Source: a virus (lineage: Duplodnaviria > Caudoviricetes). From it: a DNA stretch of 34,170 nucleotides. Positions 3,001-34,170 of the stretch are shown in pieces. The DNA lies in the IMG/VR virus record IMGVR_UViG_3300010043_000007, positions 1 to 34,170 of that record, one strand, 5' to 3'. Each line of letters starts with the position of its first letter. The first letter of the stretch is position 1. Made by a program: the position numbers and the translations under genes. Below the pieces are notes generated by a model. It ran no database searches, was not told where the DNA came from, and worked only from the letters and a program-made list of their open reading frames with translations.

Positions 3001-4689
3001 GCTGCTGCGGCTGGCGTCGGCGTCGGCTCTGGTTCTAGCTCAACCACTACAACCGTTAGCGGAACGGCTTCCGGTGCTGGCGTTGGCGCGGCCTCGGCAA
3101 CAAGCAGAACGATTGCTGGAGCAGTTGGTGCTTCTGCTGGCGTTGGTGCGGCTTCGGCAATTGGCAGGACGATTGTTGGCACTGTAGCTTCGGCATCTGG
3201 TGCTGGCTCAGCAATTGGTCGCTTCGGCATTTCAGGTACTCTTGCTTCAACTGAAGCAAGTGATGTAGCAGCCTTTGTTGGTGTTCTTGCTATTTCCGGT
3301 AGCTTGGCGACTGCTGAAGCGCCGGATATTGCGGTTTTTGTTGAAGGTGATAATAGATATGGTTCATTGGCAGCTAGAGACGCCAGTGATGTCGCAGCTT
3401 TTGTAGGACAGATTGTAAGCTCCGGTGCGTTTTCCGTAGTCGAAGCAATTGATATTGCGAATTTCCCCGGTCTTGTTGGCATTACCGGCGCATTGACGAC
3501 ACAAGAACTTGTTTTAGATCAGGCAAGTTTCGCTGGTTTAGTCGGTATTGCTGGCGCATTGGCCACGCAAGAAACTGGTGGTCCTGATCTTGCGAGTTTT
3601 GCCGGTCGAATTGAATGGTATGTCACGCTTGCCGCATATGAAGCGGCAGACACTGCAACTTTCCAAGGACTAGTTGCTCGCAGTGGTACATTAGCTGCGA
3701 TTGAAAGTAGCGACACTGTCGCTATTGCTGGTTCAGTCGCATGGCTTGGAATACTAGCAGCCATTGAAGCACATGACACCGCAGCATTCTCAGGTGTCAC
3801 TGAAAATTATGGTACTTTCGCAGGTCATGAAGCATCAGACACTGCGGCGATCTCAGCTAGTGTGGCTTGGGCAGGATCGCTGGCCGTTGTTGAAGGCGCA
3901 GATCACGCTGCGTTTGTCGGTCTTGTTAGCGCGATTGGTGCTCTCACAGCGGTTGAAGCAAGCGATATCGCAGCTTTCCCTGGTCTAGTTGGTCGCACTG
4001 GTAGTCTTGCTGCGGTTGAAGTTGATGATAATGCAGCATTCGTTGGACTGATTGGTCATACTGGTAGCTTTGCTGTTGTCGAGATTGGCAGTGATACTGC
4101 CGCGTTTACCGCGAATGCGGCATTTCTTACTACTCTGGCTGCGACTGAAACGCCGGATAAGGCCACATTCATTGGCCTGACTGCGGCACTTGGCGTATTA
4201 GCTGCAATTGATCGAGCAGATGCGGCGTCGTTTACGACAACGATGGGTATCGTTGGTCATCTTGCGGCACTTGAAGCAAATGACATTTGTCATATTCAAG
4301 GCTTCTCGTGGTCGCTACAAGGTACGCTTGTTGTTCGTGAGAATAATGATACAGCAAGCTTCGCTGCTACGCTGTTGACTTATGGCAGTCTAGCTGCTGT
4401 TGAAGCACATGATACCGCAGCGTTCTCTGCTAGATTTGAAGCCAAACTGGCTGCGACTGAAGCCGCAGATATAGTTGGATTCACCGGTGAAATTGTCAAA
4501 ATTATTTCACCGTCTCCGGTTGCCAATTTTATTGGTAAATGGCCGCACATTGAATTCTATGGACAGTATAAACCTACAGTCTTTATCGGTACATGGACGG
4601 AACCAGCTAAGAATGTGACTGGATCACAATCAAAACCATCCCCGGCTGCGGGGCGTTATAAACCATCGAAGTCAACTGGAACAGTCTAA
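1..4689 (+). CDS. Giant Gly/Ala/Ser-rich repetitive virion protein (fibre/whisker-like), 5'-truncated by the window edge
   Basis: Frame 1 has no stop from base 1, so the Met at 265 is probably internal. A poly-Gly domain is followed by 20-aa (60-bp) repeats such as ASGVGGSSVAGGKIAAATAS, then ~21-aa repeats G.LAA.E..D.AAF.G. Stop at 4687-4689 abuts the next ATG. Confidence 0.8.
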   Translation, partial: GGGGAGGPSGVGAAGGPGSTAASGGGGGGGGANNGAAGGNPGSGLPGGAGGNGGGGSGGGLGGQPGNAGTSGGGGGGGTGTTTASAVNMSGGAGGSDTAFDSTHGSGGGGGGAGSCNNTGTFTGQANGGNGANYGGGGGGAACYRPTGAGSTATVGSGGGGLIVINYTVISGPVSGAGSASGTGAASGGGAQIAGATASASGVGGSSVAGGQTAAASGSAAGVGGSSVTTAIVLASVASSSGVGGSSVVGFAALVPDAFQVGAFQAPDAFQVRLPGSAASATGTGAASAVGAVVSAAVGSASGVGGSSVATAKVIPATAAASGVGGSVVAGGQTAVATASASGVGGSSVAGGKIAAATASASGIGGSSVAGGEIAGATASASGVGTSSVAGGGISGAAANSAGVGASAVVGRGIVVSVANASGVGGSTVAGGQTAAAIASASGVGASSISGAQIATAAANSAGIGASSVAGNGLFPATANAAGVGGSAFAGGGISGATASASGIGGSSVAGARVIPATGAASGIGGSTVAGGETVAAVASASGSGASSVAGGQIATAAANASGVGASAVTAASIIVSTASASGIGGSSVIGGQIIGALASASGIGAASGVGVAFVKVLWLDEIRLVPYADETAPFTPPSAAYTPNTDIAAFTGGIGFGTSEGVGTASGLGTSSVVGRSIATATATASGVGASAATSGKIATAAASAAGTGTSSVATVQIIAATASASGVGGSSVAGGEIAGAIASASGTGTSLISTAQVIPAIGAATGIGASAVTGGKIAVATASASGIGASSVAGAGLFPATAAASGVGASSVTGAGIFPATASASGIGASSVAGAKIAVATGSSAGTGASSVTGAGLFSATANASGIGASFVVGGEIAAATGAATGTGAANASGAKIAGAIAAATGTGVATGISQQGAATGAATGVGAATAVGRTIIGAVGSAAGSGTSSVAGGGVKPATASSAGVGTASAQSPTLATASASGIGSASAVGAKIAGAVAAAAGVGVGSGSSSTTTTVSGTASGAGVGAASATSRTIAGAVGASAGVGAASAIGRTIVGTVASASGAGSAIGRFGISGTLASTEASDVAAFVGVLAISGSLATAEAPDIAVFVEGDNRYGSLAARDASDVAAFVGQIVSSGAFSVVEAIDIANFPGLVGITGALTTQELVLDQASFAGLVGIAGALATQETGGPDLASFAGRIEWYVTLAAYEAADTATFQGLVARSGTLAAIESSDTVAIAGSVAWLGILAAIEAHDTAAFSGVTENYGTFAGHEASDTAAISASVAWAGSLAVVEGADHAAFVGLVSAIGALTAVEASDIAAFPGLVGRTGSLAAVEVDDNAAFVGLIGHTGSFAVVEIGSDTAAFTANAAFLTTLAATETPDKATFIGLTAALGVLAAIDRADAASFTTTMGIVGHLAALEANDICHIQGFSWSLQGTLVVRENNDTASFAATLLTYGSLAAVEAHDTAAFSARFEAKLAATEAADIVGFTGEIVKIISPSPVANFIGKWPHIEFYGQYKPTVFIGTWTEPAKNVTGSQSKPSPAAGRYKPSKSTGTV
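541..3230 (+). repeat. Degenerate 60-bp coding tandem repeat (20-aa unit)
   Basis: gcatc(c/t)gg(t/c) or close variants recur at exact 60-nt spacing (901, 961, 1021, 1081, 1141...), with a few interruptions. Confidence 0.85.
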
Positions 4690-27716: not shown

Positions 27717-28744
27717 TGCCTAAGCTTCTTACAGCGCCTTTTCAAAATCCATCATATCCCCAAGATCAGGATATGACGCCGGATGAGATGGCGGAAGCGG
27801 CTCGCGCTGCATCAATGGCGCGTGCACAGTCACCCAATCCACTGACGTGCGTTATTGAAGGCGTATGGTCGAGCGTTGATCAATTCCATGCTCATCCATT
27901 CAATGAGTGCATGGACTATCGACATAATAATGTGATTGCTGATGGCGCACCTTGGATTTATTGGCAACTTCTCGATGGGCCGCTGATTGGTCCAGCTACA
28001 CCTATTCCAGATCTCCCTGGCGGAATCAGGGATTGGGTGTCGAGGGCGAGAGTAGAGCCGCCAAAACCATTGCCTCCAGTGATCCCTGTCGAAGAGGAGG
28101 AACCAGTGCTCGTTCTGACGACTATTTTTGATACTCCTGGTCAGTTCGGTGTTTACTCAACGCCGGAAAATTGCGTCAAGCTCGAAGTGCAAATGGTCGG
28201 CGGCGGTGCTGGCGGCGCGGGCGGCGGTCAGACCGGCGCGTCATGGGGTTTTCAGGGCGGCGATACGACATTCGGTACGACAATCGCCGGAGGAGGCCGT
28301 CCGATCATAGCCCATGCGTATGCTACCGGACCTTTCCAGGCTTGGAACACACCGGGCGGCATGGGGACCGCTGGCGGCGAGTCAGTCGGCACTACAGAAG
28401 GCATTGGCGCGGCAGGTGGAACAGGCGGTGCATCATTTTACGGTCAGGGCGGCGGAGGTGTCTATCAAGCGGATGGTCAGTTGGCGGAGGTTTGGGGTGC
28501 AGGTGGTGGCGGTGGCGGCGTCGATGGCACTGTCGTCGCTGCGGCTGGTCGAGGCGGCGGCGCTGGTGCCTTCGCTTTCCTGCGCATTCAGGGCCTGAGC
28601 ATAGCTCCTAACTTCACCTTCTCAGTCGGCGCTGGCGGCAAACGTGGCCCACAGGGCGTCGGCGGTCATTACGGAGGTGACGGTGCCGGAGGGCGCATCA
28701 TCATCGAGGCATATATTTCAACGCCACCAGTGACACCGACATGA
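27716..28744 (+). CDS. Glycine-rich domain tail-associated protein
   Basis: TPG..VY.TP.....LEV.MVGGGAGG...GG.T.FG...F.FSVGAGG..G...GDG.GG.IIIE, the typical phage Gly-rich domain. Confidence 0.75.
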   Translation: MPKLLTAPFQNPSYPQDQDMTPDEMAEAARAASMARAQSPNPLTCVIEGVWSSVDQFHAHPFNECMDYRHNNVIADGAPWIYWQLLDGPLIGPATPIPDLPGGIRDWVSRARVEPPKPLPPVIPVEEEEPVLVLTTIFDTPGQFGVYSTPENCVKLEVQMVGGGAGGAGGGQTGASWGFQGGDTTFGTTIAGGGRPIIAHAYATGPFQAWNTPGGMGTAGGESVGTTEGIGAAGGTGGASFYGQGGGGVYQADGQLAEVWGAGGGGGGVDGTVVAAAGRGGGAGAFAFLRIQGLSIAPNFTFSVGAGGKRGPQGVGGHYGGDGAGGRIIIEAYISTPPVTPT

Positions 28745-28751
28745 GGACCAG

Positions 28752-29300
28752 ATGGACGGCATATTGGGTGGATACATTGATCGAACATTTTGCGTTCGCA
28801 TTGAGCGGGATGCGATTTGGCCACTCAACGGAGGCTTTGCTACGCGCGTGACATTGATGGGTGAATTCATCGTTGAGAATCTCTACATAGGTCCGGTAAG
28901 CACAAAGGGTCCAATGATCGCTGCGCATCTCTATCCGCTTACATTTAACGGCGGTGATAAAACTGCTCACGTCTACATCGACGATGAGGGTACGCTTGTG
29001 CCAATGATCACTGATCCACTGCCAATTGGACTTGACGGAAGTCGAGGCTTGATCGTCACCGGATATGTTTCCATTGATAGCAGTGGTGTGGTTGGAACAC
29101 AGCTTGAACAAGAAGGTTGGAGCGCTTTTTACACGCAAGGCAATGATGCTGGCAATGTCGACAAAAGCAAGAGCGATATAGACGGCAAGCCTTATACGCC
29201 AGCAGGTTTGGCGTCTATTGCTGTTGAAATGGTTGAAGCTTATTACACTCCGCCAAAAGAAGCGACAGGATTCTATACCCCGCCACATCCCAGCCCATGA
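28752..29300 (+). CDS. Hypothetical protein
   Basis: 182-aa ORF with GAGGA RBS in the operon. Confidence 0.65.
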   Translation: MDGILGGYIDRTFCVRIERDAIWPLNGGFATRVTLMGEFIVENLYIGPVSTKGPMIAAHLYPLTFNGGDKTAHVYIDDEGTLVPMITDPLPIGLDGSRGLIVTGYVSIDSSGVVGTQLEQEGWSAFYTQGNDAGNVDKSKSDIDGKPYTPAGLASIAVEMVEAYYTPPKEATGFYTPPHPSP

Positions 29301-29310
29301 AAGCAGTCTG

Positions 29311-29451
29311 ATGAAACCGCTTAATCAACAAACTCTTGGTCAGCGTATCGCTCTTACCATGGTCATCGTGGTCGTCATCTTGTTTGCGCTTGCCTTTATC
29401 GGTTGGGTGACGGGTGGCTGGGAAGTGATAATGGTGCCTAAAGAGCCATGA
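29311..29451 (+). CDS. Small single-pass membrane protein (46 aa)
   Basis: MKPLNQQTLGQRIALTMVIVVVILFALAFIGWVTGGW; ATG at 29311 avoids overlap with the upstream gene. Confidence 0.55.
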   Translation: MKPLNQQTLGQRIALTMVIVVVILFALAFIGWVTGGWEVIMVPKEP

Positions 29452-29901
29452 ATGGCCAAGACTGTCCAGTTCAAGCTTGGTGGCACGCTTACTCTTTTAG
29501 AAGAGGAAGCTGGCTACTGCTTGGTTACAGTGCGCTATGGCGCTTTCACAATTACAGCAAGAGGAAATCACATGTCGTATACGCTTCCATCTAGAATGCA
29601 AGTTCATGCTCAAGTCGCTTACGTTGATGCTGCTGGCAATCCAGCCGTTGTCGATGGTGATGTGACTTGGGCTTCATCCAACGATCTTATCGTTGCAGTG
29701 ACAACCAACACCGCGGATACAACCAAGGTGCTGATAGCTGGCGTTGGTCTGGCAGGGCAAGCGCAAGTCACTGCGACCGCTGACGCAGATCTTGGTGACG
29801 GTGTACGCACGCTGGTTACAACAATGGATGTTGAGGTTATCGCCGGCGAAGCCGTTGCCGGAACCATCACACCCGTTGGTGCTGCGGAACCGATTTCATG
29901 A
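29452..29901 (+). CDS. Ig-like domain protein
   Basis: YVDAAGNPAVVDGDVTWASSN..IVAV......G..GQAQVTATADAD, an Ig-like (Big_2-type) pattern. Confidence 0.65.
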   Translation: MAKTVQFKLGGTLTLLEEEAGYCLVTVRYGAFTITARGNHMSYTLPSRMQVHAQVAYVDAAGNPAVVDGDVTWASSNDLIVAVTTNTADTTKVLIAGVGLAGQAQVTATADADLGDGVRTLVTTMDVEVIAGEAVAGTITPVGAAEPIS

Positions 29902-29916
29902 ATGGGAGACTACACA

Positions 29917-30312
29917 ATGATCCGCTTCGTGCTTGGCATTCTGATCTTGCTCGCGCTGGCGATCCCGGCGGAAGCGCAGCACTCGTGTGATAGGCTTTCA
30001 TTCTTTCATCATGTCAACGCGACCGGCCCAATCGAAATAATTCCGGCCGATCCGACAAAGCGCATCTATTTTTGCGGCTTCATGCTCACGCAAAAGGGTA
30101 ATACGCTCGACTTCGAAATTTTGCTAGGGCATGGCACCAATTGTGACACCGATACGCAATCAATGATGTTCTTAGAGCTTCCAAATGACTTTGCGCTGAC
30201 TAATCGTATCGAACAAGTTGGCCCGGTCACTGAATATGGTTGGGCGTTGTGCATCAAGACGAGTGGTAGTAATGCCAAGCTTGGCGGTGTTATTTATTGG
30301 GCACAGTTTTGA
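29917..30312 (+). CDS. Secreted Cys-containing protein with signal peptide
   Basis: MIRFVLGILILLALAIPAEA|QH Sec signal with an AxA site; GGAG RBS at 29905. Confidence 0.65.
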   Translation: MIRFVLGILILLALAIPAEAQHSCDRLSFFHHVNATGPIEIIPADPTKRIYFCGFMLTQKGNTLDFEILLGHGTNCDTDTQSMMFLELPNDFALTNRIEQVGPVTEYGWALCIKTSGSNAKLGGVIYWAQF

Positions 30313-30506
30313 TGAAATCACAAACGCATAACGTCGTCATCGCTGGCCTTGAGCAAGGGCTGAAGAATCGGATAGCAAAGATATTTGAGAATCTATCTAC
30401 GGCGGGGGAAGGCGAACGCGAAAAGCGCTTCCGTACCGGGGTTGCTAATGCGGTGGCAGCTTTCGAGCGAGCTTACGAGATTGTCAATGAGGATGTTTCG
30501 TCGTGA
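30312..30506 (+). CDS. Small helical hypothetical protein
   Basis: TGATG-coupled start; resembles the repeated domain of the 30706 ORF. Confidence 0.55.
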   Translation: MKSQTHNVVIAGLEQGLKNRIAKIFENLSTAGEGEREKRFRTGVANAVAAFERAYEIVNEDVSS

Positions 30507-30736
30507 ATCCTGGTCTTCCAGAAGAAGCTGGCCTGACCGCGCGGAGCGTCACTGACGCACTCAAATCTACTCCGGTCGTCTTGGCGCTGGTTATCTTCAA
30601 CGTACTCTTCATGTTCTTAATTACCTATGCATCAATCCGTCAGGATCAGAGCAACGATTCTGAACTAGCACGAATGCACGAGTTAATTGCGACTACTTTG
30701 CGCACGTGTGTGCCGTCGTCAAAACAAAGCGACTAA
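30503..30736 (+). CDS. Membrane protein, holin-like candidate
   Basis: One hydrophobic helix PVVLALVIFNVLFMFLITYASI, close to the endolysin; GTGA overlap. Confidence 0.5.
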   Translation: MNPGLPEEAGLTARSVTDALKSTPVVLALVIFNVLFMFLITYASIRQDQSNDSELARMHELIATTLRTCVPSSKQSD

Positions 30737-31191
30737 TTACGCTCGCGCTTGCGGCGTTCCTGACAATGCAGGTCAGTTTTGATTCTGCGCAATATAGCGA
30801 GGAATTAAAAGAAGCTGCACGGCGGATTGAGAGCGATGCATTGGATGATACTTTGCGCAATTGGGTCGTTCAAGTTTTCACGGTGTGGTTGCGTGATCCA
30901 GATGGTCAGCCGCACCGGGCGGTAACTGGAGTCCGTACTGCAATCGCGGCTTATCATTTCGGACGAAACCGCATAGATCTGGAAACCGCGTCGAACGAGC
31001 ACATCAAAAAGATATTGAGGGAAGGATTGGATGAAGCATTGATGAAATATCTCACCAATCTTTTCAACGCCTGGATGCATGACACTGGTGGTCGCCCTAG
31101 TGCAAGTCATCAAAAGCTCAAAGACAATGCCGTTACATCGTATTTGAGCGCACGCGAGAATCTAGATCGATTGTATGAGGAAGCAAAATGA
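30706..31191 (+). CDS. Membrane-anchored/secreted protein with a duplicated helical domain
   Basis: N-terminal hydrophobic stretch; two LD..L......F..W..D..G.P copies; ATGA overlap with the endolysin; start uncertain. Confidence 0.6.
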   Translation: MCAVVKTKRLITLALAAFLTMQVSFDSAQYSEELKEAARRIESDALDDTLRNWVVQVFTVWLRDPDGQPHRAVTGVRTAIAAYHFGRNRIDLETASNEHIKKILREGLDEALMKYLTNLFNAWMHDTGGRPSASHQKLKDNAVTSYLSARENLDRLYEEAK

Positions 31192-32726
31192 CAGATATCA
31201 AAGCGAAGGTCGATGCGGCGGCGGCCGACATCAAGTGCGAGACTGGCGAGCCGAAGTGGCTTCTGGTGATGCGCGCAATTACCGGGCTGACTGAGGAACC
31301 TGGCGATCCAGACAATCCGAAAATCCTGGCGATGGCGAGATACATTGGGCTGAAATTTCCTGATATGAAATCATACACCGATGTTTATCAGCATGATGAA
31401 ACCGCTTGGTGTGGCCTCACCGCGGCATTCTGCATGAGCGTTGCCAATATTCGTCCACCATTTGGACCCACGGACACAGATAAATTCTTGTGGGCATTGT
31501 CATGGGAAAATTGGATGGATGGAATGACGAAAGGCGGCGGCAAGATTATTGGTTCGCCGGTGCTAGGCTGTGTTGTTGTGATGACACGTTCAGGAGGTGG
31601 GCATGTTACCTTATTCGAGAGCGTGGACGGAAATGGTAACTATCGATGTCGTGGCGGGAATCAAAGCGATGCGGTCAATGTTCAATCGTATGATCCGGAT
31701 GATGTGGTGGCGCTAGTCTGGCCAACTGCTGCTGGTGACGTGCCACAAATTCCGGTCGAGCAGCGGCCTCTTTTGGTCGAAGGCGACAGCGGGCCGGATG
31801 TTTTCGACATGCAAAGTATGATCCCGAATTTTACTGGAGACATTGATGGTGACTTCGGGCCACAAACCGAAGAAAACGTGCGACGTTATCAGGCGTCGCG
31901 TGGTCTTGATGTCGACGGCGAATGTGGTCAGCAAACGTGGACTGCTCTCTACGAGAATACACCGCCACTGCCGCCGCCACCCGGAGCATTAACCTATGAA
32001 CAACAATCGGAGGTTATGAAGATAGCAAATGAATCTGCTATCGCTGATTATGGCTGGAGAGACCGCGGCATTGCGCCGACTGGATATACGCAAGGCATGG
32101 CTCTGGCCTTCGCCCAGAGCTATAAGAAACTCAAAGCTGGTCATGCTGCCGTTGTGCAAATGGCGCGTGCCAGAACTTCATCTGATAAAGATGCATTGAA
32201 TGAATACCGCGAAGATTTCGAGGCTCTGAATATGTCGAATGAGGAAGATGGTGCAGATACTTTGCGTCACCTGTACGCACTGATGCTTGGCCAAGGAATG
32301 AGAGAATCATCCGGCCAGCATTGTGAAGGTCGTGATATGTCTGCGGATAATGTGACAAGCGACACAGCGGAAGCTGGCTTGTTCCAAACCAGCTACAATG
32401 CTAGCAATGCTAGTGAACCAGAATTCGACATTCTTATGGATGAATATCTGGCAGGGCTATCGCCCGGTTATCTTGAAGCCTTCAGCGAAGGTGTATCATG
32501 TTCAAGCAGCGATTGGGAAAACTATGGGTCAGGCCGCGGAGAAGCTTTTCAAAGATTGTGCAAAGAGGCTCCTGCGTTCGCTGCCGAGAGTTGCGGGCTA
32601 ACCTTGCGAAACTTGTGCAACCACTATGGACCAATCAATCGGCACGAAACCGAACTAAAGTTGGGGGCTGATGTGATGTTCCAAGCAGTGCAGGACTATA
32701 TGGATGAGAGTGAGGCAGTGGCATGA
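31188..32726 (+). CDS. Modular endolysin: NlpC/P60-CHAP-like (TIGR02594-type) + peptidoglycan-binding + lysozyme-like domain
   Basis: DETAWCG....GGGHVTLF...GGNQSDAV; GDSGPDV..Q....DGDFGPQTE..VR.YQ..RGL.VDG.CG.QTW; GMRESSG....AEAGLFQTS. Confidence 0.9.
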   Translation: MTDIKAKVDAAAADIKCETGEPKWLLVMRAITGLTEEPGDPDNPKILAMARYIGLKFPDMKSYTDVYQHDETAWCGLTAAFCMSVANIRPPFGPTDTDKFLWALSWENWMDGMTKGGGKIIGSPVLGCVVVMTRSGGGHVTLFESVDGNGNYRCRGGNQSDAVNVQSYDPDDVVALVWPTAAGDVPQIPVEQRPLLVEGDSGPDVFDMQSMIPNFTGDIDGDFGPQTEENVRRYQASRGLDVDGECGQQTWTALYENTPPLPPPPGALTYEQQSEVMKIANESAIADYGWRDRGIAPTGYTQGMALAFAQSYKKLKAGHAAVVQMARARTSSDKDALNEYREDFEALNMSNEEDGADTLRHLYALMLGQGMRESSGQHCEGRDMSADNVTSDTAEAGLFQTSYNASNASEPEFDILMDEYLAGLSPGYLEAFSEGVSCSSSDWENYGSGRGEAFQRLCKEAPAFAAESCGLTLRNLCNHYGPINRHETELKLGADVMFQAVQDYMDESEAVA

Positions 32727-32887
32727 TCAATCTTATCTTAAACTTGAATTCAACGCGCCGCGCGTCCAAGGATCGTAGTCTTGACGAGAGAACTATTGTG
32801 AAGCGACAGCGTCGTGTGATTCGTGTGATGCATCCAGTCAAGCCCAAGCCACCTAAAGTTATTCGTGCTATGGGAAAGCTTGAATAA
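32723..32887 (+). CDS. Small basic protein (54 aa), not in the ORF track
   Basis: MINLILNLNSTRRASKDRSLDERTIVKRQRRVIRVMHPVKPKPPKVIRAMGKLE; ATGA overlap upstream and TAATG overlap downstream. Confidence 0.6.
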   Translation: MINLILNLNSTRRASKDRSLDERTIVKRQRRVIRVMHPVKPKPPKVIRAMGKLE

Positions 32888-33153
32888 TGACAGATGATGA
32901 ACTGATTATTCTTTGGCATACTGATGAGACTGCGAACAACTTGGCGCATGAATTTGGAATAAAGCAGCAGACACTAATAATGCACTGGCGTCGCTTGAAG
33001 AATGAAGGGAAATTGCCGCAACGGGTGCGCCAGATTTCTGACTGGGGTCAGCGACAGCCTGACCGCGGCTATGATGGGAGACCAAGCGTTGGTGATTATG
33101 AAGATCCGTTGCTAATGAAGTTGTTTGAAATTCATCCTGAGAAAGCACCATAG
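32887..33153 (+). CDS. Helix-turn-helix-like protein
   Basis: LIILW...ETANNLAHEFGIKQQTLIMHWRRL resembles an HTH. Confidence 0.6.
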   Translation: MTDDELIILWHTDETANNLAHEFGIKQQTLIMHWRRLKNEGKLPQRVRQISDWGQRQPDRGYDGRPSVGDYEDPLLMKLFEIHPEKAP

Positions 33154-33155
33154 CC

Positions 33156-33185
33156 CGCCTCACGTAGTTAACCTTGCGTGAGGCG
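33156..33185. terminator. Hairpin between the late operon and the array (possible bidirectional terminator)
   Basis: Perfect 9-bp inverted repeat CGCCTCACG (33156-64) / CGTGAGGCG (33177-85) just after the last stop; U-tract is weak. Confidence 0.6.
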
Positions 33186-33196
33186 AATGATTTTGT

Positions 33197-34170
33197 CGGC
33201 GCGCTAGTGATTGCCGGGGTCTTTGCGGATATCCGGCACGCTCCAACTCTCCGGAACAATTTGGAGTGGCGGCACGCTATGACTCTACGTACTAATGTTG
33301 CTGCTCGGCACGCTGATGGACATCGAGTCTATTTGCACAACACGGCACGCTAGTGATCGCCGGGTCTATGTGAATATCCGGCGCGCTTCAGCACGCCAAG
33401 TCTATTTAGAAATTCGGCACGCTCCAATCGCCCAAGTCTATGTCAAAGTTCGGCACGCTGTTTTGTTTCAGAACAATAGCCGCGCGCGGCACGCTACGGA
33501 ATGCCGGGTCTCATTTGCAGTTCGGCACGCTTCCCAATGTCAATTCTTTGCCTCCTTCCGGCTCGCTGGTGGTTCTCAAGCCTATTTTACAATCACGGCA
33601 CGCTACGGAATGCCGGGTCTCTCTTGCAGTTCGGCACGCTTCATCTCCCAAATCTTATGCGTCGACCGGCACGCTCGCACCTCCCAGATCTATAACATGA
33701 ACCGGCACGCTTTCGATCTTCAGATCTAGGAATCTCGTCAGCACGCTGCTGGTCTCCCAGTTCTATCTTGAGATGCGGCACGCTTATGGTCATCAGGTTT
33801 ATCAGCCAACTCGGCACGCTAACATGAATCATATCTTTTATTGATCACGGCACGCTTTGGTTCTCCAGTTCATTAAATGCTCACGGCACGCTGGAACCTC
33901 CCAGTTCAATCCATGTTTGCGGCGCGCTTTCTTTCCCCAGTTCAAAGTCGCCCGGCTCGCTAAGCGTCGGATCGCGTAGCAGTCCGAAGAGATTCGGCAC
34001 GCTGTCGGCGACCGTGATCTATAAAGTGCGGCTCGGCACGCTAGAGCTATTCAAATCTTATTTGCCATTTCGGCACGCTAGGCATGGCCTGGGTCTATAG
34101 TAGATAACGGCACGCTCCATGGACCCACATCTGTTTGCTAACTCGGCGCGCTTATTGATGACGGGTCTAA
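33197..34170 (-). ncRNA. TIGR-like dual-repeat guide-RNA array (>=27 units, ~36-nt period), truncated by the window edge
   Basis: CGGCACGCT (variants CGGCGCGCT, CGGCTCGCT, CAGCACGCT) at 33197, 33234, 33270, 33306, 33343, 33379, 33415, 33451, 33487, 33523, 33559, 33596, 33632, 33667, 33703, 33739, 33776, 33812, 33848, 33884, 33920, 33953, 33995, 34034, 34071, 34108 and 34144. A second 9-nt repeat (~CRRNTCTAT) sits midway, with ~9-nt variable spacers on each side. Strand is inferred. Confidence 0.85.

Follow-up and report, generated by a model that had tools for sequence, protein, structure and literature searches.

A few guides of a phage TIGR-TasA array resemble strong gene starts

What are the guides of a TIGR array aimed at in nature? 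The available parts of both main TIGR papers give natural targets and spacer origin as unknown; the accessible text of Faure et al. (2025, PMC12045711) names no natural TIGR targets, and that of Xu et al. (2026, bioRxiv 10.64898/2026.09.09.750476) states that they cannot yet be determined. The question is raised by the window analyzed here, the 34,170-nucleotide stretch of IMG/VR record IMGVR_UViG_3300010043_000007, which covers 34 kb of a contractile-tailed phage genome, with genes for tail sheath, tube, baseplate, and endolysin, and ends in a repeat array. A first-pass annotation of the letters alone took this for a TIGR array in which some guides resemble ribosome-binding sites with their start codons. 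The only run listed with the window is a soil metagenome, and a search for close cultured relatives of the phage found none, the best match having 42.5% sheath identity; of 401 Pseudomonadota genomes sampled, 8 hold the best tail-sheath matches, at 33–42% identity, and tas matches at 30–41% were obtained in five MAG contigs.

The array occupies positions 33197..34170 on the minus strand, with 26 complete units in the window, and is open at the contig end. Read on the minus strand, a unit runs from the edge repeat AGCGTGCCG through spacer A and a 9-nt loop (about ATAGAYCYG) to spacer B, mostly over 36 nt; this is the dual-repeat layout of TIGR arrays (edge and loop repeats of 8–12 nt and two spacers of ~9 nt), and 23 of the 26 units measure 35–37 nt. 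Box D and C motifs are present as AG...CCG in the edge and mostly as AT/AG...CCG, CTG, or TTG in the loops, which are more variable than the edge repeat. The boxes described in the available text of Faure et al. are UG and CCA, whereas here they are AG or AT and CCG, CTG, or TTG, a divergence that the TIGR definition given there permits. The array closes with a truncated edge at 33197–33205, followed by a hairpin at 33156..33185 (12 pairs, z −3.8), a likely terminator between the array 3' end and a convergent lysis operon, with a U-run on its plus strand side only. That operon, comprising an endolysin gene (CHAP + PG-binding) and two short ORFs at 31188..33153 on the plus strand, is not part of the system, and the same convergent arrangement of endolysin and array is found in the relative L010.

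Three units at 33920..34033 on the minus strand are irregular (33, 42, and 39 nt), and the 42-nt unit (window 33953–33994) recurs in the L010 array, where a 19-base core and the variant edge that follows it are held in common with L010:4555–4608 in an array that is otherwise different; the unit may be a fixed structural element. The array also varies within one population: unit 34071 (34071–34107) is absent from an overlapping contig, L042, and from one run contig, and another run contig differs around 33701–33740 (window 33703–33747). Among related phages, G001, G002, and G005 carry several arrays each, with more than 100 units in G005 and with some arrays of G001 remote from tasA and on the opposite strand.

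The tas gene lies outside the window and was found on L042 and in the sequencing run of the window itself, related loci having been gathered by a repeat-pattern scan and protein searches. L042 and the window end have three units in common. A 3193-nt contig of the run matches L042:1900–4103 with 2 differences, and a 694-nt contig covers L042:4096–4536 and then continues into the irregular unit of the window; the two overlap by 8 bases only, and the link across position 4100 rests on L042 itself. The resulting order is tasA (L042:2415–3437), an HNH-like ORF (3430–3912), and an array of 40 units, including 14 upstream of the window, so that an adjacent, co-oriented, Nop-domain tas gene is present through L042 and the same run. 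The edge repeat of the window array also matches arrays that adjoin Tas genes in relatives. The L042 Tas protein has sequence matches to TaTasR and SpTasH, and both sequence and fold matches to 9mty and 9w04; in the predicted model (pLDDT 90.6) the top 10 fold matches are TasH or TasR. Only 7 open codons lie upstream of the aligned Tas start, and relatives likewise have no room for a nuclease. Because the coiled coil of the model begins at residue 3, the protein is a TasA, a solo-Nop effector with no N-terminal RuvC or HNH domain, which is what the first-pass annotation had proposed to check. The available text of Faure et al. describes TIGR-TasA dual-repeat systems that share with this locus the 36-nt units, the edge and loop repeats, the two 9-nt spacers, the position of the array downstream of a solo-Nop tas gene, the truncated 3' edge with terminator, and the location in a phage; the HNH ORF between tas and array sets the present locus apart from them. 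Array anatomy, strand, and the tasA link are shown, and the initial reading of a TIGR array with split-guide geometry is supported.

In the accessible text of Faure et al. (PMC12045711), spacer A and spacer B pair with opposite strands of the target, in an order left unspecified, and the 3' overhangs reported there would fit only one join, spacer A followed by reverse-complemented spacer B. When the minus strand is read, this join reproduces all six sites that had been reconstructed from the letters, unit 33739 requiring a 10-nt and unit 33632 an 8-nt spacer B. Independent support for the join comes from related arrays: in 972 36-nt units from relatives L001–L207, the last bases of spacers A and B are complementary in 35% of units versus 24% after shuffling (z 8.2 with within-array shuffles), the strongest cell of the 9 × 9 table. 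Covariation at this position fits spacer 3' ends that meet at the target centre, whereas Faure et al., in the text available, report no obvious spacer covariation. It may mean that the two halves of some guides share one base pair in the middle of the target, giving a 17-bp site, or that the two bases pair in the RNA.

In the same 972 units, neither a genomic junction signature (z −0.6) nor a reading-frame signature (z 0.2) is seen in the joined sites, against z 16 and 8.7, respectively, for real phage DNA as positive control. When the guides were split by overlap class, 17-bp sites gave z 1.1–2.3 versus 8.7 for real DNA, weak support for the shorter site. From the missing signature it follows that many guides may have a true site other than the exact 9 + 9 join, that spacer pairs may have recombined, or that the targets may be unlike phage coding DNA. 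The same absence bears on how spacers are acquired.

Six guides of the window had been read as a Shine-Dalgarno (SD) motif followed by ATG. We scored each spacer pair by its anti-SD pairing energy (kcal/mol) upstream of an ATG, with an assumed anti-SD motif; the gene-start pattern itself was first chosen by eye. Three of the six guides, all six of which lie on the minus strand, proved strong: unit 33667 (33676..33702), with the strongest SD and ATG (−12.9); unit 33523 (33532..33558), with a strong SD in spacer A and the ATG from spacer B (−11.7); and unit 33884 (33893..33919; −10.5). A fourth, the 37-nt unit 33739 (33748..33775), is moderate, with its SD 12 nt from the ATG (−6.4). The remaining two are not convincing and were not counted as gene starts: unit 33848 (33857..33883) has a weak SD (GAGA only; −2.7), and the 35-nt unit 33632 (33641..33666) yields no score, its ATGs lying 0 and 3 nt from GGAG, which is too close.

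A 5-mer SD with an ATG at 4–12 nt occurs in 3 of 26 window guides, compared with a mean of 0.53 when spacer pairings are shuffled (P 0.0037) and 0.08 when letters are shuffled (P 0.0003). A permutation test of the kind suggested at the outset gives SD plus ATG less often in shuffled pairings than in the observed ones when starts are limited to ATG. At −8 kcal/mol or stronger, a level reached by 0.27% of genomic 18-mers, the count is again 3 of 26 (pairing-shuffle P 0.003), and in the full array, once two near-duplicate units are removed, it is 3 of 38 (P 0.0027). With GTG and TTG starts allowed (4-mer SD), 3 of 26 guides stand against a mean of 2.0 (P 0.33), and the pairing signal is gone. The claim that the pattern appears only after flipping one half holds for the A + B join and for the join of reverse-complemented B with A, both 0 of 26, but not for unflipped B + A, in which the palindrome CATG still yields 2 of 26. 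In style, the joined sites are like the strong gene starts of the window phage itself.

The strong guides are not all independent of one another. Those of units 33523 and 33884 represent nearly one site with orientation swapped, at an offset of 3 and with 13 of 15 positions alike, a likeness seen in 1.3% of the pairs that can be formed from 43 comparable phage gene starts. The guide of unit L042:4126 overlaps that of 33884 at a further offset (10 of 12 alike), a 10-base word around the ATG is held in common, and the ATG falls in one place for all three; L042:4126 can also be read as a weaker SD and ATG in the opposite direction. As different registers cannot be obtained by copying a whole unit, repeated sampling of one real gene start is favoured. 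Units 33523 and 33884, and perhaps L042:4126, overlap one apparent gene start, which leaves two independent strong sites. Across the family, overlaps at an offset are not enriched (53 versus 46 ± 5). Elsewhere in the array, units 33487 and 33596 contain a near-duplicate guide; reverse-complemented and shifted by one, its B half equals the A half of the first unit (L042:3912), and these three guides could tile one site.

We looked for the gene-start signal in the rest of the array and in its relatives. Of the 14 array units that lie upstream, none reaches −6 and one reaches −4. Related TasA arrays contain 6 guides of 1194 at −8 or stronger, versus 2.6 after shuffling (P 0.03), and random phage DNA would be expected to give 3.2 (P 0.10); at two looser cut-offs the counts are 13 versus 10.0 and 31 versus 27.6 shuffled, the expectation from random phage 18-mers at the three cut-offs being 3.2, 10.0, and 22.6. 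Motif counts of SD plus ATG behave similarly in 1193 de-duplicated units, for which the false array L011 was excluded and near-duplicates within 3 of 16 letters were merged (6 versus 3.3 and 24 versus 20.7). None of 31 other arrays with at least 15 units exceeds 2 matches at −6. The window array is an outlier against its relatives (Fisher P 0.0007; 0.02 after correction for 32 arrays), and with the overlapping trio counted once, 2 of 36 guides remain (shuffle P 0.013; Fisher P against relatives 0.021, or 0.49 after 32 arrays). The gene-start signal is therefore local to the window array, and there is no clear family-wide bias. What stands of the claim that guides are aimed at gene starts is this local excess; against it, only 3–5 of 40 guides are concerned, the strong guides reduce to two sites, and no target was found in the DNA searched. 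A gene-start reading, for which we see about even odds, covers at most a tenth of the guides.

The strongest competing explanation, which we consider a serious possibility though short of probable, is that chance and shared descent produced the pattern: a spacer B carrying GGAG would have been copied by half-unit recombination and met CAT-bearing partners, and a striking array was then picked from a family that has no gene-start bias. GGAG stands at spacer B positions 1–4 in 4 of 40 units, all within 33632–33919, versus 6 of 1194 units in relatives, and this fixed position suggests shared descent of half-units. Within single arrays of relatives, spacers are re-used with new partners in 7 A pairs and 12 B pairs, versus ~0.1 each by chance; re-use is seen in L004, L043, L051, L070, L124, and others, with one B spacer present three times in L043, and the pattern points to recombination of half-units. 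The loss of significance on collapsing the trio with the 32-array correction, or on admitting GTG and TTG starts, together with the lack of a clear family-wide excess, favours the same explanation. It is opposed by the pairing shuffles, which retain the spacer sets and still give P 0.001–0.004, and by unit 33523, whose SD comes from spacer A and whose site overlaps that of 33884 in a different register. Moreover, the SD units are only 2–10 of 18 identical in the same register and are not duplicates of whole units.

A search of databases with the joined 18-mers, which the first-pass annotation had advised, produced no credible target, either in related phage DNA totalling 2.1 Mb or in exact scans of IMG/VR. 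Against about 2.15 Mb of related loci, among them five records rated complete, 1229 guides gave 4 one-mismatch matches in the true geometry and 6, 8, and 3 in control geometries, and the one exact match in the true geometry is in a locus that had been fetched with that very pattern. Junction gaps of −2 to +3 still gave no excess over control geometries (2.1 Mb). Scanned exactly against IMG/VR, the 33667 sequence matched two contigs, in both cases at a gene start; neither contig has a blastn match to window 28000–34170. Since any SD plus ATG string falls at gene starts, and the contigs appear unrelated, we read these matches as chance and rejected them as the true target. Neither 33884 nor 33523 had a match in exact scans, and the degenerate trio consensus had none either; sites of 17 bp or with mismatches would escape such scans. 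A degenerate motif gave 3 two-mismatch matches over 16 related virus records. We also rejected a 2-mismatch match of L042:4126 in the related phage L141, which falls within a gene and is no better than chance.

A more specific version of the gene-start reading, which we put forward only tentatively and regard as rather doubtful, would have the phage direct TasA several times, each time in a different register, to the ribosome-binding site and start codon of a single competitor gene encoding a protein that starts Met-Phe-Gly. An SD half-guide would be re-used in modular fashion with gene-specific halves, the sites would often be 17 rather than 18 bp, and this would be the first natural TIGR target class.

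It is improbable that the guides serve self-regulation by silencing early genes of the phage that lie outside the window. The likeness of the joined sites to the strong starts of the phage speaks for this, as does the fact that only the 34-kb structural and lysis part is fully searchable; against it, no match better than 3 mismatches exists in the window outside the array, there is none in L042, and in five relatives rated complete (G001, G005, G008, G010, and G011) no guide matches its own genome at 0–1 mismatches.

Slightly less probable still is that guides aim at gene starts and the outcome is cutting, the HNH ORF and TasA together forming a split TasH. The product of this ORF, 160 residues long, is HNH_3-like but falls under the family cut-off (E 1.3e-4); the ORF overlaps the stop of tasA, separates that gene from the array, and is present in the run of the window. 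In the other loci examined (135 records with a tas hit, redundancy included), however, no homolog of it was found. L010, a 91%-identical relative, has its array straight after tasA, and the C-terminal residues of its tasA product are the C-terminal residues of the HNH ORF; judged by this combination, the ORF looks like a recent insertion, homing-endonuclease-like, into the terminal codons of tasA. No intron or other credible Rfam match was found over the insertion. The suggestion of gene silencing in place of cleavage is favoured by a TasA that has no nuclease and by published repression, with the HNH ORF between tasA and the array as the point against it. A reading in which the guides bind mRNA was rejected: of the two 9-nt halves, a single one is antisense to the message, and TasR is reported, in the available part of the published work, to be inactive on RNA.

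The reading that we prefer, and to which we give an even chance, is that a few guides aim nuclease-free TasA at start regions of strongly translated genes in a rival phage or in the host, where it blocks transcription and does not cut. The array transcript would be processed into 36-nt guides and loaded on TasA dimers, and loaded TasA would bind competitor or host DNA on both strands with the spacer 3' ends at the centre; guide processing and this mode of binding are taken from the available parts of published TIGR-Tas work. Bound TasA would then block RNA polymerase, and for the guides on gene starts (two or three sites among 40 units) the block would stop a whole gene or operon. Most guides in this array and in its relatives aim elsewhere than at gene starts. 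That the joins are real targets, that they belong to genes of a rival phage or the host, and that silencing takes place in nature is what we infer.

Repression of transcription by TasA in E. coli is described in the accessible text of Xu et al. (2026, bioRxiv 10.64898/2026.09.09.750476), where TasA and dead TasR act as repressors; nuclease-free Tas and guide-dependent transcriptional silencing are the common ground with the present proposal, whereas that work used engineered guides in stem-loop systems and we are dealing with native guides in a dual-repeat array. By analogy, a natural precedent for phage-borne guided repression is TldR (Wiegand et al., bioRxiv 10.1101/2023.11.30.569447), which, according to the part of that source available, is likewise phage-borne, nuclease-dead, and RNA-guided, and represses a gene from its upstream region. 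TldR is derived from TnpB, uses one guide, needs a flanking motif, and has native targets that overlap promoter elements; here, in contrast, a Nop protein is combined with many split guides, some of which match a ribosome-binding site with its start codon. In a search covering mainly the main text of open-access papers and preprints, we found no literature that ties TIGR or tigRNA to the Shine-Dalgarno sequence, and on natural targets of tigRNA only the two main TIGR papers.

Repression by TasA is already published; this locus adds a lead to natural targets from native guides, which is plausible and unproven. The covariation of last bases in 972 guides bears on the design of any TIGR target search. 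If the bias is due to chance, this is an ordinary TasA locus. If the guides are real, they provide a short list of testable native TIGR targets and hint that arrays are filled by repeated sampling of one site and by re-use of half-guides, and phages would be using TasA to shut down selected genes at their start regions.
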